A DNA stretch of 20,000 nucleotides, taken from the sequence record SRR16203515_705; one strand, 5' to 3'. Both the position numbers and the translations under genes were made by a program. The notes beneath the pieces are model-generated. The model was not told the DNA's origin. It saw only the letters and a program-made list of their open reading frames with translations, and searched no databases. Numbering within the stretch: position 1 is the first letter of the stretch; every line of letters begins with the position of its first letter. Below, in pieces: positions 1 to 15,641 of this stretch.

Positions 1-86
1 GCGACTCTCGGGTCTTCCGCATGCCTTGGTGGAGCGATGGTTTTGAATTCGATGTCCATTTTAAGCCTGGTCGGGGCAGGCGCCAT
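1..86 (-). CDS. 5' end of an unidentified gene running off the window (MAPAPTRLKMDIEFKTIAPPRHAEDPRV...)
   Basis: Manual translation: open frame from ATG at 86 (or in-frame ATG at 59) to the window edge, divergent from the TauD-like gene across an AT-rich spacer. Too short to identify. Confidence 0.45.
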   Translation of the reverse strand, partial: MAPAPTRLKMDIEFKTIAPPRHAEDPRV

Positions 87-99
87 TCCCACAGGGGGT

Positions 100-356
100 G
101 ACCATTAGAAATTCTGATTTACCCAATAAGGGATAGGTTTTATTTTGCAATGCAGAAATTCTGCTTGGGGCCAAAATCCGTAAAACTATTATTTCTCTAT
201 ATAAACCAATAATTTAACTATTTTCTGCACCGTTCATATTTTTGACGGCTGCCTATAGATCAAAGGCGCGAGCCCCACAACTTCTGTTGAATCCGTCTTT
301 TGGGAGAGTTTTATAAATTGTCCCCCTCGTTACAATCTTTCCAACCAAAATCCTAA
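100..356. promoter_or_regulatory. AT-rich divergent promoter region
   Basis: AT-rich gap between divergent ORFs. Contains AGAAATTCTG twice (107-116, 154-163) and the inverted repeat GCAGAA-A-TTCTGC (152-164). Confidence 0.45.
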
Positions 357-1268
357 ATGTTTGCCCCTTTGAACTTAACTGCATATCAATCGACGTTTAC
401 ACCGCGCAACCCCGAAGAAAATGTCTTTGCAAATGAGCGTCACTGGGATCACTGGCTTTGCAAATATCGGGAATCATTAGAGACACTCGTCGTTGATATC
501 GAAACGCCCGCTCATCTCACAACTCAGGAACGCTCGGCCATTCAGGCTCGACTCAGTAGCGCCAATATGGTGGTTTACCGATGCGGGTCGTCAGAAGCCG
601 TAAATCGCAACCAGATCGCCCAACTCGCAGAACAGTTCGGCTTGCTTAACCCCACCCACAACCTCTTTGCAGCAGAAGATGGTCTTAGCGAAATCGAAGT
701 GAAAGCCGATGGACCTTCAAGCCAATACATCCCCTACACCAATCGCGCGCTCAACTGGCATACCGATGGCTACTATCGTAGTCACAAAAATCCTGTCCGG
801 GCAATGTTGCTTCATTGTGTGAGGCCGGCCCAGAACGGCGGATCGCTTGAAGCCATAGACTCGCGAGCACTGTACGGGCTTCTCAAACAAAAAGACCATC
901 GATTCACCGAAGCGCTTCGGATGCCTGATGTCATGTGGATTCCTGAGAACCAAGCACATGGCGCCAATCGCGAAGCCTCTTTAGGCCCTGTTTTCTTTTT
1001 TGAGAATAACTGTCTTCAGATGCGCTATACCGCTCGAAAACACAATGTCGTTTGGAAAAACACCGTTTTGATCTCGGAAGCAAAAGACGCGCTCGAAGAA
1101 TATCTTGAGGACCCCAGTATCCGTTTTAGATATCAACTTCAGGCCGGTGAGGGATTGTTAAGTGCGAATGTACCGCATCGAAGAGAACCTTTTTTTGATT
1201 CAGACGATCGCGCGGGGCGTTTGATATACCGCGGTCGCTATGCGCAACCGATTTCAACTGAGGCTTAA
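357..1268 (+). CDS. TauD/TfdA-family Fe(II)/2-oxoglutarate dioxygenase-like protein
   Basis: YTNRALNWHTDGYY (HxD), MLLHCVRPAQNGGS and distal NVPHRREPF (H-x-R) motifs match the TauD/clavaminate synthase fold. Start codon uncertain. Confidence 0.85.
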   Translation: MFAPLNLTAYQSTFTPRNPEENVFANERHWDHWLCKYRESLETLVVDIETPAHLTTQERSAIQARLSSANMVVYRCGSSEAVNRNQIAQLAEQFGLLNPTHNLFAAEDGLSEIEVKADGPSSQYIPYTNRALNWHTDGYYRSHKNPVRAMLLHCVRPAQNGGSLEAIDSRALYGLLKQKDHRFTEALRMPDVMWIPENQAHGANREASLGPVFFFENNCLQMRYTARKHNVVWKNTVLISEAKDALEEYLEDPSIRFRYQLQAGEGLLSANVPHRREPFFDSDDRAGRLIYRGRYAQPISTEA

Positions 1269-1274
1269 AAGGCT

Positions 1275-1469
1275 ATGGACAGCGTACTTTGGATCAGCGA
1301 GCTGATTCTGCAAAATCAACCCGCGACTTTCGCCGAACTTACCGATCTGGTTCGCGAACGTGCACGGGCAGGGGATCGGTTTTTACGGATGGACGTTAAA
1401 CCGCCTTATCCTGATACGCCCGACAACTGGGAATTCCGGCTCGAAGGCGCCTTCACCAGCCCCGTCTAG
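1275..1469 (+). CDS. Small conserved hypothetical protein of sulfur oxidisers (64 aa)
   Basis: 6 bp after the TauD-like stop. The FLRMDVKPPYPDTPDNWE motif is recalled from small proteins in dsr-associated clusters. Confidence 0.75.
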   Translation: MDSVLWISELILQNQPATFAELTDLVRERARAGDRFLRMDVKPPYPDTPDNWEFRLEGAFTSPV

Positions 1470-1495
1470 CACGAAACCGGATACCAGAATCTCAG

Positions 1496-2200
1496 ATGAA
1501 ATATCTTAACAACGAATTTGACCTCGGCGCCGAATCTGAGGAGGACGCGTCAACCTCTGTCGAGGCGCTTGAGGCCCAGCTTGGCGCGGTAAGAGAAAGA
1601 TTAAATGAGGCCCAGGCTCAAATTGACGCCCCGCAATGGCGCCAGCTCGCGTTACAGGAAGGCCGCCTTCTCGTCATGCTCGAAAAAGGCGATGAAGCGT
1701 GGTCGAGTGCCAAAATTTGCTTTGACCAATTTTGTAATGCAAAGCTCTGGGCAGACACTGTTGAAGCCGCACGAATAATGTTCCAGTCGGGGCACTCTGA
1801 TTCACTTATTGCACTCGGTCACGGCGTCTGGCTCGCAGTAACTTTCCCAGTCGATCCAGAGCTTTCAGTAGCACTCCTCCAAGATATCATCGACGAAACA
1901 CCTGATGACTCTGATGGCGCTGCCGTTGCGGCTGCTGTTGCTGCCTATATTGTTGATCTACGCGCAGAAGGAAAAGAGCACGAATCCTTGTCTTTTTTTA
2001 CCAACCAAATGTTGGGTGCAGTCGCCCGTCGACACAGCAGTATTGAAAATCAGGAAGCTTTTGATCAATGGATCTCTAGACTCGAATTAAACGACCCCAC
2101 TCGATTCCTACCGCGCCTCCGAAATGTTGTAGACGTATTAGTACAAGACAACTGGTGGATTGATCGAGAGGCAATCCAGGCCGCGTTGCCGATACAGTAA
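1496..2200 (+). CDS. Hypothetical acidic alpha-helical (TPR-like) protein
   Basis: 234-aa ORF tightly packed in the operon, Ala/Leu/Glu-rich helical pattern. GHGVWLAVTFPVDPEL and ETPDDSDGAAVAAA segments look like conserved motifs. Confidence 0.75.
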   Translation: MKYLNNEFDLGAESEEDASTSVEALEAQLGAVRERLNEAQAQIDAPQWRQLALQEGRLLVMLEKGDEAWSSAKICFDQFCNAKLWADTVEAARIMFQSGHSDSLIALGHGVWLAVTFPVDPELSVALLQDIIDETPDDSDGAAVAAAVAAYIVDLRAEGKEHESLSFFTNQMLGAVARRHSSIENQEAFDQWISRLELNDPTRFLPRLRNVVDVLVQDNWWIDREAIQAALPIQ

Positions 2201-2208
2201 GAATCACG

Positions 2209-2907
2209 ATGTCATCTGCCTACTGGACTGAATCTGAGCTTGAAAAAGCGAAACCGGTAAAACCCGTGGTGGTTGATGTCGTCTTTAAAATTCGAGGTCG
2301 GCAGGTAGCGGCTGATCATGCTTTTGCTTTATCGAAAGCGCTCACAAATGAACTCCCATGGCTTGGCACTGAACGAGAGGTCAGTATCCATCTGATCCAC
2401 GGTGCACAATCCGCTAATGGATGGTGCAAGCCTGATGATAGCGGCATTATCGAGCTTTCAGGTCGAACTCGCCTTATCATCCGAGTGCCGCACACTCGAC
2501 TTGAAGACGCAAAAGCCTTAATCGGCGCCAGTTTGAATCTTGACGAGCACAAGATTGAAATACTCGATGCAAAACCTCGACCACTTTCAGCCAATTCGAC
2601 CGTTTTTGCCCACCATGTTCGATCACCGGATGGCACAAATAGTGAACCGGCGTTTTTAGCTTCTGCAGCGCACTGGCTAGAAGATCTCGCCATTACGCCC
2701 AAAAAAATGCTCTGCGGGGGGATGCGTCATCTAAACATGAATGAATCGGTTATCTCGACCCGGAGTCTTTTAATTGCGGAACTTAACCCTACCGAATCCA
2801 TTGCCGTTCAGACGCACGGGCTGGGACCGGACCGATTATTGGGATGCGGCGTTTTTGTCCCCTCCAAGAGTATATCGGCCGTCCACCAACCGGAATCTGA
2901 CCATTAA
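2209..2907 (+). CDS. cas6: Orphan Cas6/Cmx6-like (type I-MYXAN-like) RAMP endoribonuclease homologue
   Basis: C-terminal glycine-rich loop GLGPDRLLGCGVF fits the Cas6 GhGxxxxxGhG signature. N-terminal DVVFKIRG...ADHAFALSKAL and LSGRTRLIIRVP resemble Cmx6. Confidence 0.85.
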   Translation: MSSAYWTESELEKAKPVKPVVVDVVFKIRGRQVAADHAFALSKALTNELPWLGTEREVSIHLIHGAQSANGWCKPDDSGIIELSGRTRLIIRVPHTRLEDAKALIGASLNLDEHKIEILDAKPRPLSANSTVFAHHVRSPDGTNSEPAFLASAAHWLEDLAITPKKMLCGGMRHLNMNESVISTRSLLIAELNPTESIAVQTHGLGPDRLLGCGVFVPSKSISAVHQPESDH

Positions 2908-2938
2908 CACTATAGATACGTTGAAATAGGAATTCATC

Positions 2939-3277
2939 ATGCCAATCGAAGTTGACGGAAAATCAGTTGCCACCAACGAAAACGGGTTTCTCGAAAACCC
3001 AGATGACTGGAGTCAATCAGTCGCTGAGGCGATGGCAGCCACAGAGGATCTCGCCCTGACACAAGAGCATTGGGATGTGATTCACTATCTACGAGAAGAG
3101 TATTTTTCAAACAACGGGAACCAGCCGAACAACCGAACGTTATTAAAAAAAATGGGGTCTCTTTGGGATCGGAAAGTGAGCAATAAAGAAATGTTCGATT
3201 TATTCCCTGGTAATCCGAGCAAGCAAGCTGGCCGTCTGTCCGGCCTACCCGAAAGTATGCGAAAAGGCGGCTATTAA
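2939..3277 (+). CDS. DsrC/TusE-family protein lacking all cysteines (RspA-type paralogue)
   Basis: NENGFLENPDDW, LTQEHWDVIHYLR and LFPGNPSKQAGRLSGLP are DsrC/TusE motifs. Ends RKGGY and contains no Cys. Confidence 0.9.
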   Translation: MPIEVDGKSVATNENGFLENPDDWSQSVAEAMAATEDLALTQEHWDVIHYLREEYFSNNGNQPNNRTLLKKMGSLWDRKVSNKEMFDLFPGNPSKQAGRLSGLPESMRKGGY

Positions 3278-3337
3278 CTGCCGCGGCTCGCGGACGACAG
3301 AAAGTACGAATTCATATTTTTTTTAAAGGAGAGTTTC

Positions 3338-3541
3338 ATGAGTGGAAAGAAAGAGCTGATCGAAAAAATGATCGCGATGCAAAAAGCGTTTATTGACCAA
3401 GAACAGAACGGAGGCATCAATCCAAAAGATTACTTCGCGCCAGAAGATGGCCACGCGTTAGACGGCTATCGAGAATCATATGAAAAACTTGCGACACAGG
3501 TCGTCGACTTAGCTCATGAGGAGAAGGGCTCAAAGCGCTGA
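3338..3541 (+). CDS. Small hypothetical protein (67 aa)
   Basis: Strong RBS (AAGGAGAG) before the ATG. Last gene of the + strand operon, convergent with the next gene. Confidence 0.8.
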   Translation: MSGKKELIEKMIAMQKAFIDQEQNGGINPKDYFAPEDGHALDGYRESYEKLATQVVDLAHEEKGSKR

Positions 3542-3549
3542 GCCTTAAT

Positions 3550-4596
3550 CTAAAGGGCAAGCGCTTCTATCGAACATCCCTCAAAAACACCATTCTGCGG
3601 CTCACCACTGGCTCGATGTCGCGCCAGGAGCCCGGTGGCCTGACGGCGCCAGTGATGACTTCCTTTGCGCACGATTTTTCGCAAGGGTTGAAAATCACCT
3701 CCATCAACCCAGCGCTGATAAGCGTTAAATAGCGACGGAAACAATTGCCGGCGAATGCCCGCCATGGTCGCAAAATAAAAGTGTAAAGGAGATTTTTCTT
3801 CCTGACTCAATAACGCCGGCAGCACCATCATGCAATCAGCAAGCAGGTCTCGAACCGCCCGAATCAAAATCTCTTGTGCTCGGTCGCTGGCCGCCATCAC
3901 CATCTGATTCCAGTCGTCTCCTAGACACTCTCCGCATATTTTTTCTCCCAATTCATGCAGAATCGCGAACTCGCTAAATTGCTCAGCCATCCGATCAAGG
4001 GCGGTCTCTGGATCCTGACCAAATCCATAACCCGCGAGTGTTCGGGCCATCGCATTTTTAGGTTTTTTCCATCGCCACTCCTCTATCATCTCCCATAAAA
4101 CCCGACGAAGCGCTTCTTGCCGAATCCATATCGTGGTGCCGCGCGTCATGGCAGGAGGCGCGATCAGTTCACGAACAACCTCTTCTCCAGTATAAAAAAG
4201 TTCGTACCCGTCTCCTTGCTCAAAAGTGGTGAGGCGACCAAGCGAAAACACCGGTTTATCGAATCGACCAATCCCTGCGCTGTACCCGTAACCTTGCGGT
4301 ACAAGCCAGCTGTTGATCTGCTCGATATCAAAAGCATCGACTTCACCCGTCGGCAACGGAATCTTGCGGTACGACTGACCTTCCAAGGTGTCCCAATATT
4401 GCTCGCGCGCCGATACCCACTCTCCTACCATTCCGGCATCCAGCTTCGCATCGTAAGGTAGATTCTGTTCCCACCTAAAGTACTCTCTCATGTGCATTAA
4501 ATAAACGCATAACGAATAATCACCTGCGTGTTCCGCGTCAGAGAGATCGCAGTTGTATTTGACTGACTCAATCAACAAATTAGGAAGTGACGACAT
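3550..4596 (-). CDS. Sfum_1244-family-like hypothetical protein
   Basis: NCDLSDAEHAGDYSLCVYLMHMREYFRWE N-terminus and ILHELGE motif recalled as typical of this family. Confidence 0.7.
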   Translation of the reverse strand: MSSLPNLLIESVKYNCDLSDAEHAGDYSLCVYLMHMREYFRWEQNLPYDAKLDAGMVGEWVSAREQYWDTLEGQSYRKIPLPTGEVDAFDIEQINSWLVPQGYGYSAGIGRFDKPVFSLGRLTTFEQGDGYELFYTGEEVVRELIAPPAMTRGTTIWIRQEALRRVLWEMIEEWRWKKPKNAMARTLAGYGFGQDPETALDRMAEQFSEFAILHELGEKICGECLGDDWNQMVMAASDRAQEILIRAVRDLLADCMMVLPALLSQEEKSPLHFYFATMAGIRRQLFPSLFNAYQRWVDGGDFQPLRKIVRKGSHHWRRQATGLLARHRASGEPQNGVFEGCSIEALAL

Positions 4597-4636
4597 CTGT
4601 AAACCTTAAGATAAAATGGTGGTGGGAAGCAATACT

Positions 4637-5230
4637 ATGGCGACAAGAATCCGCGACCGGTGGCGAAATACCGGACAACCTGTTCCGCTTGAGGAAAATG
4701 CAAAAGCGCTGGCTTACGTATGCTGGCAACTCGCATTAACGTCTGCCCGTAATCTTCATGCGGAGGATTACATCTATGATGATGACCAACAACGGGTTGG
4801 AGTCATTCGAGAGTATCTGATCTTCCTCGTACACGTCGCGGACCGGCTGGCTTTTGATCTTCTCGACGAAGGCGATCGGCCCGAGTTTGTCTCTGCACTC
4901 GCCTACAATTGCGGGTCGCAACTACAACGAAACGCCAGCGAAATCTTGGGTTCCAGGGATTATCGCGATGCGTTTATAGCCGCACTTAACGATCGCAGTT
5001 CTGATTACGGTCAATGCTCGTTTCAAAGCGGTTTACCGGGCTACAGTCTTCTGCGTGTTTTTGGGGATCGCGTAAAAGCGATAATGGGGGATGACCAAAC
5101 CAATCGATGGGTAATCGATCAAGTCATGGAGATTGACGGCCCGGATCTTGCTAAAAGACTTTCGAAGTCGTTTAGCAACTTGGTCAAAGGCTCATCGGTT
5201 GACGAGCCTCGCGATGGATTTTCACCCTAA
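4637..5230 (+). CDS. Conserved hypothetical protein
   Basis: Long ORF (track start 4616). ATG at 4637 (MATRIRDRW) is preceded by GGGAAG. Contains EYLIFLVHVADR and RWVIDQVMEIDGP segments. Confidence 0.7.
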   Translation: MATRIRDRWRNTGQPVPLEENAKALAYVCWQLALTSARNLHAEDYIYDDDQQRVGVIREYLIFLVHVADRLAFDLLDEGDRPEFVSALAYNCGSQLQRNASEILGSRDYRDAFIAALNDRSSDYGQCSFQSGLPGYSLLRVFGDRVKAIMGDDQTNRWVIDQVMEIDGPDLAKRLSKSFSNLVKGSSVDEPRDGFSP

Positions 5231-5238
5231 CGTCGAAA

Positions 5239-5436
5239 TTACGATTTTTTGAAATCCGATGCGCTGTCTGTGTTGTGATTCTGCCCGTCCTCGTAACCCG
5301 CTGAATAGGCCGGGGAAACACGCTGTTCCTCGCGTTCCGGATTACCCAGATAACCCCCTACCCAGCCCTGCACGTAGTCGGGATCAACACCCATTTTTTC
5401 CAGCGTATCGACGGTTTCATAGTAGACCGAGTCCAT
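5239..5436 (-). CDS. Alvin_2107-family-like small protein (sulfur-globule-oxidation associated), 65 aa
   Basis: MDSVYYETVDTLEKMGVDPDYVQGWVGGYLGNPEREEQRVSPAYSAGYEDG. GGAG RBS upstream of ATG 5436, so the true start is likely downstream of the track start at 5526. Family name from recall. Confidence 0.7.
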   Translation of the reverse strand: MDSVYYETVDTLEKMGVDPDYVQGWVGGYLGNPEREEQRVSPAYSAGYEDGQNHNTDSASDFKKS

Positions 5437-5591
5437 ATTAGTCTCCAGTAATCTTGAAAAAAAAATTTCTTCGATATTACCCTCACCCCAGCTGAACCGG
5501 GATATCCCCCTTGGGTGAGAAAGCACTATTTGCGGTATGGTCCTAAAAGCGCCCTAATTAAGAAAAATTGATAAATATTGAATTTAGATTC

Positions 5592-6704
5592 ATGGATCTC
5601 TCGCAAGAAGACAGCCTCAGACTCAACGTTTTGGTCAAAACCTCAGTCGCCATACGGATCGATGAAAATCAACTGGTTATTTTTGGTCTCGCCGACAGCA
5701 AAGAGCGCAGAATTGATCTCAAACCCTCGGGCAATGCAGGCCAATACCTGCGTCTCATTCGCGAACACCTTTCGAACCTCGTGCTCGGAACGCCCGGTGG
5801 CTACCCGGTGTTTATTCAACGCTGGACCCGAAGTGGCGCGCTTGGCGCTGAACGACTGAGCAAATTACTTTGCCTCGGTGAAACAGAGGCTGTTGTTGCT
5901 GTTGCCGCGTCACCGAACATTACTGACACGTTAGCAGGTCGAGCATGGTGGTGCCTCCCAACTGCAGAAGTGGCGCGTCTCATGTTGCGTCGAAGTCAAG
6001 TCATCAAAGGCCAAACCGGTCCCCCGCTCGCGCAGTTTTTGCTTGAATATCTCCCGTTCGAAATTGAAAGCACGGTCATCATTCAAACCGTGCAAATTCT
6101 GCTCGTCTCGGAACTGATTGATCAATCTGAAAAAGCCCGACTCTGGGCCAGAGGGCAAAAAAATGCCGCCTACCTTATCGGTTTCCTGAGCGCAGGCCCT
6201 GAATATATGATTCAAACTGATCATCAAAAATCCGTCGGAATAGCGGACCTGGCCAAACCGTCCAAAACTTTTGCCCAGCACATTGAACGCGCCCTCTCAC
6301 AAACAGGGAAACAATATCTTGAGGGTTGCACGCGCGCGCTGCGAACCGCAACCGATATGGACTCTGTCGTCGAAACGTTGGAAGCGTTGCATCGATTTCT
6401 CATGCCAATTGCAGACACCCCACAACTCCCTCGGACACCTCATTTGCTGCGTATTGCCGCTCGCGAGCGTTTTAATTGAGCCGCCTCTATATTTGATGAT
6501 GAAGAGTTCGCCTTTATCCTTAGTCGCTATTCTGAATCCGATATCAAAGCGATAATCTTACTCAGCCTTGTCGGTGAGCCCCTCGTGGCGCCCATATTTG
6601 CCATCACTGATGCGAGCGGTAGTCTGATGCGAAAAAAACTCGCCCCCGCGCTCGATCCTGCGTTTGAAGCAATCAAAGCGCTCGGCATCGCGGAGAATGA
6701 CTAG
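5592..6704 (+). pseudogene. dsrS: DsrS interrupted by one in-frame TGA at 6477-6479 (nonsense mutation, sequencing error or readthrough)
   Basis: MDLSQEDSLRLNVL, AIRIDE, VLGTPGGYPVFIQRWTR and LAGRAWW are DsrS motifs. The same frame continues 74 codons past the TGA through LSLVGEPLVAPIFAITDASGSLMRKKLAP to TAG at 6702-6704. Confidence 0.8.
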
Positions 6705-8449
6705 ATCGGAACGTATCCTGGATTGTTCTTGATACCTTTTACTTTAGGAACATTTGCCACAACGTCTTGAATCACTTTTTGGTCGCGCAAGTACTCCGCC
6801 AGGACGTCCCAAATATCAGGCAGCTCATCCGGCTGAGGATTCACACTGGCCCATCCCGCCACCTTGTAAAGACGAGAGGGATCGATCGGCTTTCCATTAA
6901 GTTCAAGATCAGACAAACGCTGCCCCATCGGTGCGGAAGGATTAATTGCGTAGCGTAATCCACCGATCCGAACCATGTCGCCGCCCATCTGGTAATAGGG
7001 ATCCGTATTGAAAAGATTGTCTGCGATATCCTCGAGAACCAGCTTGATGTTTTCGCCCGACAGCTCGTTAAGCGTCGATTTAGCATAAGTAATACCCGTC
7101 TGGTCCATGACTCGCTCGACCGTTATGTCATCTCCCGGAAGCAAACTCGTCCCCCATCTAAAACCGGGCGAGAACGCGATATCAGCACCGCGCACCTCCA
7201 TCAGTGCATCCACAATCACCTGATCAAAAGTACCGGTAAAGTTTCCCCGCCGATACAAAGTGGTCTCGGTTTTAGCCAAAACAGTCTCGAGCTGCTGTTT
7301 AAACGGTTCGCGCACACCCTCGATATACGCTGACATTTCCGGATCAGCGGGCAGCAAATTAGCAAATACAGGCAGCAGGCGATAGCGAAAATCAGCAACC
7401 TTCCCGTCGCGGACGTCAAGATCCATCACCGAGAGAAACTTGCTATTCGACCCTGAATTTGCAACTAACGTTTTGCCGCGAGCATTCTGAACCACACTCG
7501 GCAGCGGCATCCCATCATGCGTATGCCCACCCAGAATGACATCGATTCCCGTAACGCGACTGGCGAGCTTTAAATCAACGTCCATTCCATTGTGAGACAG
7601 AAGCACAACGACTTGTGCACCTTGGGCCCGAACCTCGTCAACCATCTGTTGACATTGCTCCTCTCGAATACCAAAACTCCAATCCTCAATTAAATATCGC
7701 GGGTTGGCCAGCGTGGTATACGGGAAAGCCTGACCAATAATGCCGACGGGAATGCCGTTCATTTCCCGGAGGGTATACGGCTTAAAAACCTGTCCTGACT
7801 CCTGATCAAAAGCCGGTTTATCGTCAAACGAAGCGTCTTCCGTCAACATAATATTCTGCGCGAGAAATTCAATAGGCGAGAGCTGTGTGTCTACGATCTC
7901 CCGTACACGATCAATGCCGTACGTGAACTCCCAATGACCAGTCATGATGTCAACACCCAGTAACTTGCAGGCTTCCACCATGTCCTGACCTTGCGTCCAC
8001 AGTGCGGTGGCAGAACCTTGCCAGGTATCGCCACCATCCATCAAAAGGCTGTTTGGACGTGAGGCCCTAAGCCGCTTCACCAATGTCGCCAGATGCGCAA
8101 ATCCACCGACCTTTCCGTATTTACGTGCGGCAGCCTCGAAGTCCAGGTAGGTAAAAGCATGCGCATTCGCAGAATGGGCAGGCACTTTAAAATGATTAAG
8201 AAAATGCTCGCCGACAACATGAGGCGGCTTGCCTAGCGCGTTGCCGATACCGATGTTGAAATTTGGCTCCCGAAAATACACGGGCATTAATTGCGCATGA
8301 CAGTCGGTAAAGTGTAAAAGGGAAAGATTGCCAAATGTCGGCAAATCGTAGTCGACACTCGCATCAGCAAATACTCGGCTATTTACCGCCATTCCCGCAG
8401 CACTTGCCATGGCAAGCAACCGCATGAACTCTCGTCGATTGATACCCAT
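6701..8449 (-). CDS. soxB: SoxB thiosulfohydrolase
   Basis: Tat signal NRREF. LLHFTDCHAQL, DGGDTWQGS, MTGHWEF and ILGGHTHD are metallophosphoesterase/5'-nucleotidase motifs. RBS GAGGAAGG before ATG 8449. Confidence 0.96.
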   Translation of the reverse strand: MGINRREFMRLLAMASAAGMAVNSRVFADASVDYDLPTFGNLSLLHFTDCHAQLMPVYFREPNFNIGIGNALGKPPHVVGEHFLNHFKVPAHSANAHAFTYLDFEAAARKYGKVGGFAHLATLVKRLRASRPNSLLMDGGDTWQGSATALWTQGQDMVEACKLLGVDIMTGHWEFTYGIDRVREIVDTQLSPIEFLAQNIMLTEDASFDDKPAFDQESGQVFKPYTLREMNGIPVGIIGQAFPYTTLANPRYLIEDWSFGIREEQCQQMVDEVRAQGAQVVVLLSHNGMDVDLKLASRVTGIDVILGGHTHDGMPLPSVVQNARGKTLVANSGSNSKFLSVMDLDVRDGKVADFRYRLLPVFANLLPADPEMSAYIEGVREPFKQQLETVLAKTETTLYRRGNFTGTFDQVIVDALMEVRGADIAFSPGFRWGTSLLPGDDITVERVMDQTGITYAKSTLNELSGENIKLVLEDIADNLFNTDPYYQMGGDMVRIGGLRYAINPSAPMGQRLSDLELNGKPIDPSRLYKVAGWASVNPQPDELPDIWDVLAEYLRDQKVIQDVVANVPKVKGIKNNPGYVPI

Positions 8450-8498
8450 ATCAGCCTTCCTCTCGAGATGATCAGTATTTAAAAGGAGTTTTAGAGAC

Positions 8499-8529
8499 AA
8501 AAAAACCCGGCTCACTCGCCAGGTTTTTT
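8499..8529 (-). terminator. Intrinsic terminator-like hairpin between soxA and soxB
   Basis: Minus strand reads CCTGGC-GAGTGA-GCCGGG followed by T7 (6-bp stem with one G-U pair). Confidence 0.6.
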
Positions 8530-8535
8530 AACCCA

Positions 8536-8567
8536 TGATGCCGAAGCGATTGATCGCTTCGGCATCA
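8536..8567. repeat. Perfect 15-bp inverted repeat downstream of soxA
   Basis: TGATGCCGAAGCGAT-TG-ATCGCTTCGGCATCA, with no adjacent U-tract. Confidence 0.85.
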
Positions 8568-8583
8568 AGCTAAATGAGAGAAA

Positions 8584-9438
8584 TTACTGACGCAGACTCG
8601 GCACCTTTAATGGAATGCCGGTATTCATCACAGACTCATAAAACTCTAACGCCTTGTACTCCTCGCCCTGTGCCTTAAAGGGATGCGCGCGAACTTGCTT
8701 GGTACAGCCGCCATAACGGCGATGAATTGTGCCCCAGGGTTTGCCCGCAACCTGCCACTTCGTACGCCATACCGGAAAGCCGACGCCGTGACCAAGACCC
8801 GCACTTAACACATCGCCACGAACGCTGTTACCGGAGTTATGGACATGACAATCCGCACATGAAAAATTTAACTGGCCGCGTTTTGCCCAATAAATCTGTC
8901 GTCCCTTGGCATACCAATCCTGAGCGCCCGGATCAGAGTAATCAACCGCCATTCGCTCGCCATTAAACTGCGACTTGTAATGAGCGACCAATCTGGCCAT
9001 CTTGCCACGCTTAACGTTCTTGATGACTTCTTCGCCGTTGGCTTTCAAACACGCGTTGATATCGCCTTCGATAGTGCGCAAATCCCCGCTAGCCGCGTCA
9101 AACACCGGATAGGTATTACCCGGTGCCAGGTCACAATCGGCAAGCGACTTTCCATTCGCAAATGGCGCGCTCCACTCAGTAGCTGCCTTGTCCATCTCGG
9201 GCTCATACTGAGGAAAATCCATATTGATTTCCCAGTTCGCGCGTCGCGCGGCATATTGCGGCAACGCGTTTACCCCGTCTTGGAAATCATCAAGGGTCAG
9301 TCCCGGAAAACGTTTCAGAAAAAATCCCTGAAACTCCTCGATATCTTTTGAGATTTCCGCCTCAGAGATCGCTTGAACGGCTGACGCCCCTGTCATCGCG
9401 ATACCCGCTGCTAGGGATAGCATTAATAGTCTTTTCAT
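8584..9438 (-). CDS. soxA: SoxA, monoheme cytochrome c subunit of SoxAX
   Basis: Sec signal peptide, KRGQLNFSCADCH heme motif, active-site RRYGGCTKQVRA. Confidence 0.95.
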   Translation of the reverse strand: MKRLLMLSLAAGIAMTGASAVQAISEAEISKDIEEFQGFFLKRFPGLTLDDFQDGVNALPQYAARRANWEINMDFPQYEPEMDKAATEWSAPFANGKSLADCDLAPGNTYPVFDAASGDLRTIEGDINACLKANGEEVIKNVKRGKMARLVAHYKSQFNGERMAVDYSDPGAQDWYAKGRQIYWAKRGQLNFSCADCHVHNSGNSVRGDVLSAGLGHGVGFPVWRTKWQVAGKPWGTIHRRYGGCTKQVRAHPFKAQGEEYKALEFYESVMNTGIPLKVPSLRQ

Positions 9439-9502
9439 TTGTTCGACTCTCCTTTTAGTGTCGATGCCTTAGGGCCTGACCGCCCTAGCGCAGGCAAATC
9501 AA

Positions 9503-9817
9503 TTACGATACCGTTTTTTCCGCGCTGTCTGATTCGCCCATGTTGTCTACCCAGCTTACCGTGATCGTATCGCCAGATTTGGAATTAGCCAGATGAATAC
9601 TAATCAGGGGATTTGTGGAAACGCCTGTCCCGAGATCCGCTTGCGCAACTGCTGTTCCGTTAAGCGCGAACTCCATGGTTTTAATAAAATGTGCGGGAAT
9701 CTTTTCCCCCGTTTTTTTATCTTTCCGAAGACCGGTTTCCATGGGATGCTTGGCGAGGACCATCACATCATGGCCGCCCTCAGCGCTCTTTTTAATTTTC
9801 ATTTTGGTCGATGCCAT
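9503..9817 (-). CDS. soxZ: SoxZ
   Basis: HPMETGLRKD...IPAHFI, VSTNP and SWVDNMG motifs. Confidence 0.96.
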   Translation of the reverse strand: MASTKMKIKKSAEGGHDVMVLAKHPMETGLRKDKKTGEKIPAHFIKTMEFALNGTAVAQADLGTGVSTNPLISIHLANSKSGDTITVSWVDNMGESDSAEKTVS

Positions 9818-9848
9818 TATTTACTCTCCTACTGAATACTGTGAGGGA

Positions 9849-10319
9849 TTAGCCGCCGCAACCGCCGACCGTAACTTTAATTTCTTGGGAGGTCATGTAA
9901 ATCTTGCCGCCCGCTTTCACGTAGCAATTTACCGGTGAAGTCTGTCCCATCTTGATGCGCGCGCTGTACATTGCGCCGGCACCACCGCCCATCACCTCTA
10001 GACCTGTTGTAAAAGGAGCTGGATTTTTCACAACAATCACACCGATTGATTCCACATTGGCGAGGGACGTCATCACCTTAATCGGGACAACCGCGCCATT
10101 TTCGGCCTGCAGCGGTGCTTTTAATGATACTTCGTCACTTTCAACTACGTCGGATGATCCGAAGAAAGCTTCGAGCGCCTCGGCTTCGGGGCGCGGTCCA
10201 AACGCACTCTCCGGCCAAGCTGCGGCCAAAACTCGAGTTGGGCTCAACAGGCCCGCGCCCGCAGCCACGGCAAGCGTGCTGGCGGCTACTGATCCTTTCA
10301 GAAATATTCTTCGTTTCAT
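9849..10319 (-). CDS. soxY: SoxY sulfur carrier
   Basis: Tat signal KRRIFLK, AENGAVVP and C-terminal KVTVGGCGG swinging arm. Confidence 0.97.
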   Translation of the reverse strand: MKRRIFLKGSVAASTLAVAAGAGLLSPTRVLAAAWPESAFGPRPEAEALEAFFGSSDVVESDEVSLKAPLQAENGAVVPIKVMTSLANVESIGVIVVKNPAPFTTGLEVMGGGAGAMYSARIKMGQTSPVNCYVKAGGKIYMTSQEIKVTVGGCGG

Positions 10320-10395
10320 AATTTATCTCTTCCTCAATTTTTAAACTATTTCAAATAGTAGATCGTGATTTAAAACCGTACCGGTAAAACCGCTA

Positions 10396-10821
10396 CTAAA
10401 TTGATAGCAACCAATCAACAAGATTGTCGATATCTTGCTCACTAATCAACTTGTGCTTTCCAAAAGGCGGCATGGACGTGTTCGGATTTTTAACCGTTGG
10501 ATCCCAAATCTGCGCCCTGAGATCCTCGCGATTCGGATAACGCGCTTTCATTGCCACGAGCGGAGGCGCAATATTGCCGCCCGTTGGAAAACCTTCAGGC
10601 CAGGGGCTCACCATAGCCTGATGACAGGCCAAGCAATTACCTCCACGTCGATTCACCGCAACGCACCATCCTTTAATGACGCTGTCGGCATCTTTTGCCA
10701 CCTTTTTACACTCTTTATCAGTCGGCCATTCTCCCGCCTGGGCGACTGGGCTAACGCCAACAGTTAAGATCATTGATACCGCTGCCGCGAAAGCAAGCAA
10801 ACCTGTCTTCAATCTACGCAT
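10396..10821 (-). CDS. soxX: SoxX cytochrome c
   Basis: GNCLACH, GNIAPPLVAMKARYP and TSMPPFGKH motifs. RBS GGAGGAG before ATG 10821. Confidence 0.95.
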   Translation of the reverse strand: MRRLKTGLLAFAAAVSMILTVGVSPVAQAGEWPTDKECKKVAKDADSVIKGWCVAVNRRGGNCLACHQAMVSPWPEGFPTGGNIAPPLVAMKARYPNREDLRAQIWDPTVKNPNTSMPPFGKHKLISEQDIDNLVDWLLSI

Positions 10822-11064
10822 TTTTCTCCTCCAGTTACTCCGCTTCGCAGTCATGCGGCCTACAAGCGGTTCGTTGCGATCTAGTTAGCATGCTTCATTA
10901 AGCTTCGATATAGATCATTTCATCGACAGAATCTATCGGCATTTTTACCCAAAAAGCATGGATCTCGCAAGCCTGTTAATTGCCCCTTTAGCTGTATAGG
11001 ATTTTGAAAGCCGAATAGATCTTTTATTAAAACTGCCTTCCGATCTCTCTTTTTGAAATAAACG

Positions 11065-14130: not shown

Positions 14131-14364
14131 ATGTCCGAGACCGATCAGGAATTAGATGCGCGGGGACTCAACTGCCCTTTACCTATCCTGCGGGCCAAGA
14201 AAACACTCAATGGCATGAGTGCCGGCGAGTTATTGAAAATCATTGCCACTGATCCCGGCTCTGTTAAAGATTTTCAGGCCTTCGCCACCCAAACGGGAAA
14301 CGAGCTGATGTCGTCATCTGAAGAAAATGGCGAATTTCATTTTCTATTGAAGAAAGGCGGCTAA
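14131..14364 (+). CDS. tusA: TusA sulfurtransferase
   Basis: LDARGLNCPLPIL (CPxP) and ATDPGSVKDF motifs. Confidence 0.95.
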   Translation: MSETDQELDARGLNCPLPILRAKKTLNGMSAGELLKIIATDPGSVKDFQAFATQTGNELMSSSEENGEFHFLLKKGG

Positions 14365-14415
14365 AACGCCTGCCGGCAATAAAGCAATGAAACCATAACC
14401 CGAAGGAGGCCATGA

Positions 14416-14895
14416 ATGACCGATAAAAGTATGACAATTATCGCGACCAAGGGCACCTTAGACTGGGCCTATCCGCCATTTATTCTATCGTCAACAGCCG
14501 CGGCGCTCGGTTACAACGTCACAATGTTTTTCACCTTCTACGGCCTTCAGTTGCTCAAAAAAGACCTGAGTCTTTCGGTCAGTCCCCTGGGTAATCCGGG
14601 TATGCCCATGCCCATGTCCATGGACAAATGGTTTCCGGTACTCGGTACCGCCATTCCCGGCATGCAGGCGATGATGACCGGAATGATGAAAAACACAATC
14701 AAGTCTAAGGGGGTGGCGAGCGTTGCCGAACTTCGTGACCTGTGCATAGAAGCCGATGTAAAAATGATCGGCTGTCAGATGACCATTGATCTTTTTGATT
14801 TAAACCCAAAAGATCTGATTGACGAAATTGATCTAGGCGGCGCCGCAACCTATTTAGACCATGCAGGCGGATCGGACATCAACTTATTTATTTAA
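14416..14895 (+). CDS. dsrE2: DsrE2-type sulfurtransferase (DsrE/DsrF/DrsH-like)
   Basis: TKGTLDWAYPPFIL, FFTFYGL and GCQMTIDLF motifs. Directly follows tusA, as in the rhd-tusA-dsrE2 arrangement. Confidence 0.88.
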   Translation: MTDKSMTIIATKGTLDWAYPPFILSSTAAALGYNVTMFFTFYGLQLLKKDLSLSVSPLGNPGMPMPMSMDKWFPVLGTAIPGMQAMMTGMMKNTIKSKGVASVAELRDLCIEADVKMIGCQMTIDLFDLNPKDLIDEIDLGGAATYLDHAGGSDINLFI

Positions 14896-14911
14896 GATGA
14901 CCAAGCTCCTC

Positions 14912-14940
14912 AAAAAAGGCGCCTTTCAGGCGCCTTTTTT
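14912..14940. terminator. Bidirectional intrinsic terminator
   Basis: AAAAAA-GGCGCC-TTTCA-GGCGCC-TTTTTT between convergent genes. Confidence 0.9.
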
Positions 14941-14962
14941 GCTGATTCCCTCTAAAGCCGGG

Positions 14963-15544
14963 TCAGGAGAAACAAATCCAGGTGGTAGCAATATATTTGT
15001 GATGACTCTGAACTTTTTGCCCCTGATGGAGATGTGTCCAAAACGGAGGAAACAACAAAAGGGTGCCCGTCTCGGGTCTGACACTCACATCCTGATGAAA
15101 AAATTCAGTTTGACCCTCCCCATCGGGCAGTGAATTCAGATACCAAATAGCGACGAGCTGTCGCTGACTCAGCGGGCCAGGACCTGCGTCTACGTGCCAT
15201 TGGTAAAACTCCCCTTTAGCCGTACGCTGCAGTTGATATCCCATGTCTTTGAATTTATTCGACGCAAAAAATGGGTGCAGCCCACTTAGCAAAGACAGGC
15301 CGAGCTTCAACGACTCGAACAATGCGCCGTCAACATCCTGCCACTCGGGTCGCCCCGAAATTCGAAGATCCGTTGACTGTTTAATCGATAGATCAAGCGC
15401 GGCATCCGGACCGATGAGGCCCCGCTGATGATGTGGGGATGCCTCAAAACGATTCACAATATCCGCACAACAATCAGAATCCAGCGCATCAGGTAAACAG
15501 TAGATAAAACTGCCGGGCTTTAATTCCCGGAACGCTCCGGTCAT
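14963..15544 (-). CDS. 2OG-Fe(II) oxygenase (prolyl-4-hydroxylase-like)
   Basis: YQWHVD (HxD), IWYLN, GQTEF, LLLFPPFWTHLHQG and KYIATTW. Start is ATG 15544 or GTG 15556. Confidence 0.88.
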   Translation of the reverse strand: MTGAFRELKPGSFIYCLPDALDSDCCADIVNRFEASPHHQRGLIGPDAALDLSIKQSTDLRISGRPEWQDVDGALFESLKLGLSLLSGLHPFFASNKFKDMGYQLQRTAKGEFYQWHVDAGPGPLSQRQLVAIWYLNSLPDGEGQTEFFHQDVSVRPETGTLLLFPPFWTHLHQGQKVQSHHKYIATTWICFS

Positions 15545-15641
15545 GATTTCGCCCACCCATAATGATCAATAAATTCGAATGGTGAACCCACCGGAAAATA
15601 GAGCAGCCGAACACTGTCCATCCTGAAGCGAAGGTTCATGC

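Follow-up and report, generated by a model that had tools for sequence, protein, structure and literature searches.

The locus described here raises the question of what a Cas6 endoribonuclease homologue does among genes for sulfur oxidation, away from any recognizable CRISPR system. The gene concerned is an intact open reading frame (ORF) of 232 amino acids, located on the + strand at positions 2209-2907 with an ATG start and the stop codon included, in a stretch of 20,000 nucleotides from sequence record SRR16203515_705, the whole of which is called the window. A first-pass annotation made from the letters alone had described the product as an orphan Cas6/Cmx6 homologue with an exapted, non-immune role. 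Our follow-up indicates with high confidence that the gene encodes a domesticated member of the Cas6b/Cmx6 family standing outside any CRISPR-Cas system, and that it has a fixed place in the dsrQ operon, co-inherited with the oxidative Dsr pathway in Gammaproteobacteria. As a second layer, it is proposed with some reserve that within the sulfur-oxidation regulon the protein may bind, and perhaps cut once, one particular RNA of the cell. Both layers taken together form the best explanation that we can offer, and for that explanation as a whole our confidence falls just short of an even balance.

Membership of the Cas6 family was confirmed by profile searches. The protein matched Pfam PF09559 'Cas6' over profile positions 1-190 of 191 (185.7 bits, E 1.1e-54, cut-off 26.7) and NCBIfam TIGR02807 cas6_cmx6 ('type I-MYXAN Cas6/Cmx6') with 113.1 bits compared to a cut-off of 98.85. 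By sequence, an hmmsearch with a profile of 19 relatives reached a single protein of solved structure, chain B of 8FCJ (8fcj_B; E 2.6e-25); 8FCJ and 8FCU both represent a type I-B CRISPR-associated transposon, with its Cas6 as chain B. The AlphaFold2 model (predicted local distance difference test score, pLDDT, 84.8; predicted template modelling score, pTM, 0.80) showed two beta-alpha-beta halves, and low confidence was restricted to residues 1-13, 69-76 and 223-232. When the predicted fold was compared with the PDB by Foldseek, the top matches were 8fcu_B and 8fcj_B (E about 1e-17, template modelling score 0.74-0.80). Next came chains of Cas6 and Cse3 proteins of numerous organisms, and 67 matches had E <= 0.001; among the PDB matches listed, all were Cas6 or Cse3 chains or CRISPR effector complexes including one. 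The repeat-associated mysterious protein (RAMP) fold, which the first-pass annotation had presumed, was accordingly recovered by structure prediction, with its two ferredoxin-like/RRM halves. The strings that it had quoted were also found in the translation: ADHAFAL at residues 35-41, NGWC at 70-73, MLCGG at 167-171 and the G-rich loop GLGPDRLLGCGVF at 204-216.

Four close relatives obtained in a single-protein scan showed 89-97% identity to the window protein. The ratio of nonsynonymous to synonymous substitution rates (dN/dS) compared to these four was 0.16-0.28; the gene is under purifying selection and is therefore maintained, not decaying. The nearest named records are 'Arenicellales bacterium' genomes and marine metagenome bins. 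When 1.84 billion cluster representatives were searched with a profile, 1665 family members were obtained at E <= 1e-3, of which 338 reached E <= 1e-30, and the best 150 of these were all between 148 and 290 amino acids long and scored at least 197 bits.

That the protein passes the curated threshold of TIGR02807, an equivalog model, would fit a working Cas6 that processes CRISPR RNA (crRNA) for an array and an effector located elsewhere in the genome. No such partners were detected. Matches to other Cas families were absent among 26 window ORFs searched against Pfam and 7 searched against NCBIfam, Tandem Repeats Finder gave 0 rows for the full 20 kb, and a repeat search of window positions 1-6700 showed no array. 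A genome-wide check was made in G001, the nearest genome examined (one contig, 2.74 Mb, 95% estimated completeness), which contains a single PF09559 copy, 97% identical to the window protein. Profile searches of G001, in which Cas proteins and not arrays were searched for, gave no match to Cas1, Cas2, Cas5d or DevR/Cas7, and with cas3_core only helicase matches below the cut-off were obtained; this profile gives matches in all 14 control genomes and exceeds the cut-off in only 4 of them. The cognate Cascade, which the first-pass annotation had named, together with an array, among the findings that would speak against an exapted protein, was not encountered in this genome.

The distribution of the family across the class was instead found to follow that of dsrA. 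The class sample comprised 401 genomes that were spread evenly over families and not drawn at random, and related genomes in it are not independent; three of the 401 are unpublished and were used in counts only. PF09559 was present in 125 genomes, dsrA in 127 (TIGR02064, E <= 1e-30) and Cas1 in 150. PF09559 and dsrA occurred together in 120 genomes, PF09559 alone in 5 and dsrA alone in 7. In the 95 genomes that carried both on one contig, 90 pairs were separated by 0.7-4.5 kb (median 1.75 kb) and all 90 were on opposite strands; in the remaining five the operon sits elsewhere. This near one-to-one link with dsrA strongly indicates a role of the protein outside immunity, and the first-pass reading of an exapted Cas6 is upheld. 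Cas1 was present in 64 of the 125 PF09559 carriers, which could be taken in favour of crRNA processing, whereas the other 61 gave no match. Six of the 15 carriers with a single-contig genome belong to these 61, as do the two genomes of 1.1 Mb (G188 and G348), which retain the PF09559 gene. The usual company of a Cas6, a CRISPR array with Cascade or adaptation genes, was thus not recovered: neither an array nor another cas gene in the window, none of Cas1, Cas2, Cas5d and DevR in G001, and no Cas1 in the 61 carriers.

Most exceptions to the pairing are CRISPR-type copies or contig ends. Two of the five genomes with PF09559 and no dsrA match carry genuine CRISPR-linked copies with Cas1 on the same contig (G022, in which a 36-nt repeat array is also found in the locus, and G309), and in the other three (G133, G168, and G259) a dsr-type operon is truncated by a contig end. 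Among the seven genomes with dsrA and no PF09559 match, three are 55-81% complete (G095, G111, and G329), three have a contig end just upstream of dsrA or inside the operon (G154, G294, and G376), and one has a different neighbour next to dsrA (G241). In a phylum-level sample PF09559 was found in 5 of 401 genomes, all of the same class; as the two samples were not composed in the same way, this result is hardly informative on other classes. One genome, G308 (loci L053, L058, and L059), was seen to contain a dsr-linked copy beside dsrA together with a pair of CRISPR-type fragments, of which one has a Cas1 gene at a distance of 7 kb; the subfamilies can therefore coexist without replacing each other.

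The label 'orphan' holds in so far as no cas gene or array was found in the 20 kb. It does not hold in the sense of an isolated gene, since the Cas6-like gene is a fixed member of the dsrQ operon, divergent from dsrAB. It is the fourth of six closely spaced ORFs on the same strand, with gaps of 6-60 nt, and the stop codon of the preceding ORF, o234, lies 8 nt before its start. The operon runs in the order dsrQ (TauD-like), o64, sometimes o234, the Cas6-like gene, a cysteine-free DsrC paralog and o67, divergent from dsrABEFHC. In G001 (locus L032) the same block is found divergent from dsrA-dsrB-dsrE-dsrF-dsrH-dsrC and a DsrK-like gene, and by homology to this genome the predicted start of dsrA lies about 90 nt to the left of the window, i.e. 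the window begins in the dsrA-dsrQ spacer. The dsr-linked genes are thus found on the opposite strand beside dsrA, downstream of a tauD-like gene and in genomes that also carry dsrA. Synteny was compared over 20 wide loci of about 19.5 kb each from other genomes of the class. A TauD-like gene was located upstream of the Cas6-like gene in 16 of them, an o64 homologue in 17, directly upstream of either the Cas6-like gene or o234, an o234 homologue in 10 and an o67 homologue in 6. For o64 and o234, Protein Atlas returned only their own unnamed or context-named clusters and weak leads resembling tetratricopeptide repeats below 0.9.

The DsrC paralog follows the Cas6-like gene directly on the same strand in 14 of the 20 wide loci. 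Both DsrC cysteines are replaced in it and its sequence contains no Cys; a C-terminal RKGGY, invariant in 18 of 18 paralogs, stands where DsrC has its cysteine-bearing arm. This pairing allows a protein adaptor to be considered, in which the RAMP fold would act as a platform that holds the cysteine-free DsrC paralog (e.g., by its basic RRKGGY tail) and/or DsrQ and that controls or matures DsrAB/DsrC without any RNA. The adjacency in 14 loci speaks for such an adaptor and the 6 loci without an adjacent paralog speak against it. A predicted complex of the Cas6-like protein and the DsrC paralog scored 0.00 in a run made without controls, a value that counts neither for nor against binding.

Whether the dsr-linked proteins differ from their CRISPR-linked relatives was seen in a tree of 95 rows, 64 of them dsr-linked and 31 CRISPR-linked. 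The former were retrieved by the window protein or taken from dsr contexts, and the latter were retrieved by the CRISPR-linked copy of G022, itself included, and are all fairly close to one query; L003, fragments of less than 180 amino acids and duplicates were left out, and over-long ORF calls were trimmed to the last 235 amino acids. In this unrooted tree, in which the labels of database rows follow retrieval and not verified genomic context, one bipartition divided the 64 dsr-linked from the 31 CRISPR-linked rows with a value of 99 in the Shimodaira-Hasegawa-like approximate likelihood ratio test (SH-aLRT). The separate sulfur-oxidizer branch for which the first-pass annotation had proposed a phylogeny is thereby recovered. 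CRISPR-linked members of the same class showed 25-32% identity to the Cas6-like protein and were located beside Cas1 and an array. As these true CRISPR-linked members fall on the other branch, and the position of the window gene and its relatives tracks dsrA and not cas genes, a crRNA-processing function for the window protein is close to refuted.

Several residues were shown to be common to both subfamilies, namely Asp36-His37, Arg92, Gln201 and the G-rich loop including Cys213 (G204, G206, G212, C213, G214, and F216). Of the dsr-linked rows, 63 of 64 have His37, as do all 31 CRISPR-linked rows, and Arg92 and Gln201 each occur in 64 of 64 dsr-linked rows; the conservation of the DH motif and the G-rich loop pointed out in the first-pass annotation thus extends to both groups. 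In the AlphaFold2 model His37 directly precedes the helix of residues 38-48. A conserved His after strand 1, at the start of helix 1, is what we take to be the catalytic His of several Cas6 enzymes. Other positions were invariant or nearly so in the dsr-linked rows only: Trp6 (62 of 64) in an extra acidic N-terminal segment, Trp51, His61, His64, an insert Asn70-Gly-Trp72-x-Arg-Pro (NGWxRP; NGW in 63 of 64), Arg86 (64 of 64), Arg135, Glu146, Lys166 (Lys or Arg in 64 of 64), Arg185 (61 of 64) and Lys220. Together with the basic positions confined to the CRISPR-linked rows (see below), this pattern amounts to a swap between two sets of invariant basic residues around the Cas6 core pocket. No support was obtained for control of the protein by cysteine redox or persulfide chemistry, which had also been suggested. 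Cys73 of NGWC is not conserved (M, Y or Q in other dsr-linked rows), only 42 of the 64 dsr-linked rows carry Cys169 of MLCGG, and Cys213 of LGCG is also present in 31 of 31 CRISPR-linked rows and therefore represents a family trait and not an adaptation to sulfur.

The subfamily-specific residues bear on the alternatives as well. Several His and Arg invariant in the dsr-linked subfamily alone, in a context of sulfur-oxidation genes (dsr, sox, TusA, and DsrE2), would fit a remodelled pocket (His37, His61, His64, Arg86, Arg92, and Arg185) that binds a small anion or sulfur compound, i.e. a sulfur oxyanion, a polysulfide or a nucleotide such as adenosine 5'-phosphosulfate (APS), with the protein acting as sensor or carrier for Dsr. 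We consider this improbable. The spatial clustering of these residues is presumed, and we know of no precedent for a Cas6 fold that binds small molecules. The protein adaptor gains from the subfamily's own N-terminal extension with Trp6 (62 of 64) and NGW insert (63 of 64) and from the net acidic charge of the Cas6-like protein, the invariant tail of the paralog being basic. A pure scaffold would on the other hand give no reason for the two subfamilies to preserve His37, Arg92, Gln201 and the G-rich loop unchanged. Taken by itself the adaptor role with the DsrC paralog appears rather unlikely, and yet nearly as likely as a role on RNA.

The invariance of the core pocket in both subfamilies, despite only about 25-30% overall identity, is the reason for favouring retained local RNA chemistry. 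According to this proposal, the Cas6-like protein would keep the chemistry of the Cas6 core pocket, i.e. RNA binding and possibly a single 2'-OH-mediated cut, and its target would have shifted from crRNA to a cellular transcript, the expression or stability of which would be tuned; the exchange of basic residues fits such a change of substrate. In its fullest form, which we put forward more cautiously still, a Cas6 endoribonuclease lineage would have been drawn into core energy metabolism, where by binding or cutting RNA it would set expression of the oxidative Dsr/Sox regulon post-transcriptionally; it would be inherited vertically with dsrAB and kept even in genomes of 1.1 Mb. As the tree is unrooted, the reverse direction is conceivable, and a metabolic RNA-binding protein could have been the ancestor of the CRISPR-type Cas6b.

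A number of observations weigh against an RNA-directed role outside CRISPR. A catalytic role of His37 in this family is putative, by analogy with other Cas6 enzymes, and the solved relative 8fcj_B has Asn at that position. Seven basic residues that are 94-100% conserved in the CRISPR-linked rows (R64, K107, R148, R172, K180, R208, and K210) are not conserved in the dsr-linked rows, which thus do not show the basic RNA-binding surface of the CRISPR-linked members, and the median net charge was -5 in the dsr-linked rows (55 of 64 at or below 0) compared to +5 in the CRISPR-linked rows (30 of 31 positive). The first layer, the domesticated protein outside any CRISPR-Cas system, is in turn limited by genome-wide searches that covered Cas proteins and not arrays, in genomes other than the window's own. 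No RNA target for the Cas6-like protein was found in the regions searched: an Rfam scan of window positions 1-7000 gave nothing at E <= 1, the window's 31-nt and 60-nt operon spacers were unstructured on folding (z +1.1 and +0.6), and the spacers between the Cas6-like and DsrC-paralog genes of 19 loci had no hairpin in common. The regions after dsrC in 17 loci contained GC-rich hairpins of unrelated sequence, with none in the window's lineage (L032). The acidic overall charge and the lack of an identified target count against a role on RNA, and the negative results in spacers, Rfam scan and post-dsrC regions also count in favour of the adaptor. A recurrent motif of the locus, described in the next paragraph, is probably a DNA element and not an RNA hairpin.

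The motif has the form CCC N3-5 GGGATAT(G)G and often forms a palindrome, TATCCC N4 GGGATA. A scan of 49 unique loci (548,740 bases, both strands) showed it to be almost confined to the dsrA-dsrQ spacer and to a position 85-112 nt upstream of o67, in both cases on the sense strand of the operon. It was located in dsrA-dsrQ spacers of L033-L050 and upstream of o67 in L004, L005, L011, L014, L015, L022, L023, L025, L039, and L041. The palindromic 16-mer TATCCCGAATGGGATA matched 8 of 15 dsrA-dsrQ spacers with at most 3 mismatches, compared to 0.015 in shuffled sequences. The motif lies about 40-45 nt upstream of -10-like boxes, with a second box about 35 nt further upstream, and it stays with dsrA both where the operon lies elsewhere and where no Cas6-like gene was detected. 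Because of this position and this retention it is read as a DNA site, which looks like an operator or activator site of a dsr-linked regulon. In the window, degenerate copies are present at 84-102 and 118-137, and one exact copy at 5502-5515 (-) lies just inside the annotated start of o95, on the sense strand of that gene. An earlier candidate, in which 'CCC N4 GGGATAT' served as a hairpin for the Cas6-like protein, was dropped on the same grounds of position before -10-like boxes and retention with dsrA when the Cas6-like operon is elsewhere or undetected. As a separate observation, a strong GC-rich hairpin occurs right after dsrC in most dsr operons (L034-L050), and its sequence differs between genomes.

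Metatranscriptome contigs from four runs of three studies were found to cover the Cas6-like gene and to bridge the junctions between o234 and the Cas6-like gene and from the latter through the DsrC paralog to o67. They give a weak hint of transcription only, because DNA can occur in such libraries and because strand, ends and level are not readable from contigs.

If the proposed account is true, it clearly exemplifies how a family of class 1 RAMP nucleases can be taken into service outside defence, in a housekeeping-like role, and hundreds of natural sequences make visible the residue changes that accompany loss of the CRISPR context. It also points to a companion operon of dsrAB with five or six genes, the distribution of which among gammaproteobacterial sulfur oxidizers is nearly as wide as that of dsrA, with carriers that include abundant marine groups and, judging from the size of their genomes, symbionts with reduced genomes. 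Such genes are automatically annotated as 'type I-MYXAN CRISPR-associated protein Cas6/Cmx6', and this label leads to inflated counts of CRISPR systems in the genomes concerned.

The coordinates of the operon and of the adjoining genes are given in Table 1. Homologues of the DUF6866/Sfum_1244-family gene were located within 9 kb of the operon in many loci, and homologues of o204, o95, and o303 recur near the cluster in several loci; these four genes may be part of the functional set of the operon. The GTG start of o95 is probably annotated too far upstream, since homologues align over 60-77 residues only and since the start as annotated would place the promoter-like motif within the gene, at 11 nt. 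The remaining genes of the window are soxBAZYX and genes for an M48 peptidase, an aminotransferase, TusA, DsrE2, a 2-oxoglutarate oxygenase, a nitrilase-family hydrolase, RNase G, Maf, RlmH, and RsfS. At 6701-10854, soxB-soxA-soxZ-soxY were found together with a cytochrome c gene, and no soxCD was present within the window. At 14131-15556 a TusA-DsrE2 pair was found, followed by a second 2-oxoglutarate-Fe(II) oxygenase gene on the opposite strand.

Table 1. Position, strand and supporting evidence of the features in and beside the dsrQ operon of the window.
Feature	Position	Strand	Evidence
dsrA-dsrQ spacer with two degenerate 'CCC N4-5 GGG' boxes (84-102, 118-137)	1-356		homology to G001; motif analysis
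TauD/BBOX-like Fe(II)/2-oxoglutarate dioxygenase ('dsrQ' in print), first gene of the operon	357-1268	+	PF02668, 66.7 bits
o64, conserved 64-aa ORF	1275-1469	+	conserved across loci; no Pfam match
o234, 234-aa helical protein, optional operon member	1496-2200	+	no family match above cut-off in Pfam or NCBIfam
Cas6b/Cmx6-family protein, dsr-linked subfamily, 232 aa	2209-2907	+	PF09559; TIGR02807; AlphaFold2 and Foldseek; dN/dS
Cysteine-free DsrC/TusE-family paralog (RspA-like), RKGGY end	2939-3277	+	PF04358, 110.2 bits; TIGR03342, 96 bits
o67, conserved 67-aa ORF, last gene of the operon	3338-3541	+	conserved across loci; no Pfam match
DUF6866/Sfum_1244-family protein	3550-4596	-	PF21739; PF21740; NF045620, 412.8 bits
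o204	4616-5230	+	no match in Pfam or NCBIfam
o95, 95-aa ORF	5239-5526	-	no match in Pfam
o303	5568-6479	+	no match in Pfam or NCBIfam

Parts of this locus correspond to systems that have been described. The tauD-like gene divergent from dsrA in many aerobic sulfur oxidizers was named dsrQ by Lenk et al. (2012), as cited in PMC7596348, where release of sulfite from sulfonates is speculated as its function. The window's gene at 357-1268 is the same tauD-like gene in the same divergent position. In the passages of PMC7596348 on dsrQ only the tauD-like gene is named, and neither a Cas6-like gene nor small ORFs nor a DsrC paralog lacking cysteine is mentioned downstream of it; 'Cas6' and 'CRISPR' have 0 occurrences in that article. 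The neighbour gene at 2939-3277 belongs, as a cysteine-free member, to the family named DsrC/TusE/RspA (PMC8477390), a likeness of this neighbour alone, in which the Cas6-like protein has no part. The passages of PMC8477390 that treat this family describe neither an RKGGY tail, invariant in the paralogs compared here, nor a fixed pairing with a Cas6-like gene. A full-text literature search covering few subscription journals and no supplements found no paper on a link between the Cas6-like gene and dsr, although a gene map or table may show the gene.

The closest known system is Cas6b/Cmx6, the crRNA endoribonuclease of type I-B ('Myxan'), and 'Myxan' is given as a subdivision of type I-B in PMC11096372. 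The window protein belongs to the same PF09559/TIGR02807 family, with the same double ferredoxin-like fold, and has the Asp-His motif, Arg92, Gln201 and the G-rich loop GxG..GCGxF in common with it. Unlike Cas6b/Cmx6, it is encoded without a nearby array, Cascade, Cas1 or Cas2 and is fixed next to dsrAB, and it contains the additional Trp6 N-terminal segment and the NGWxRP insert. Compared to Cas6b/Cmx6, the dsr-linked group lacks the seven basic residues, has a net charge of about -5 in place of +5 and shows 25-32% identity.

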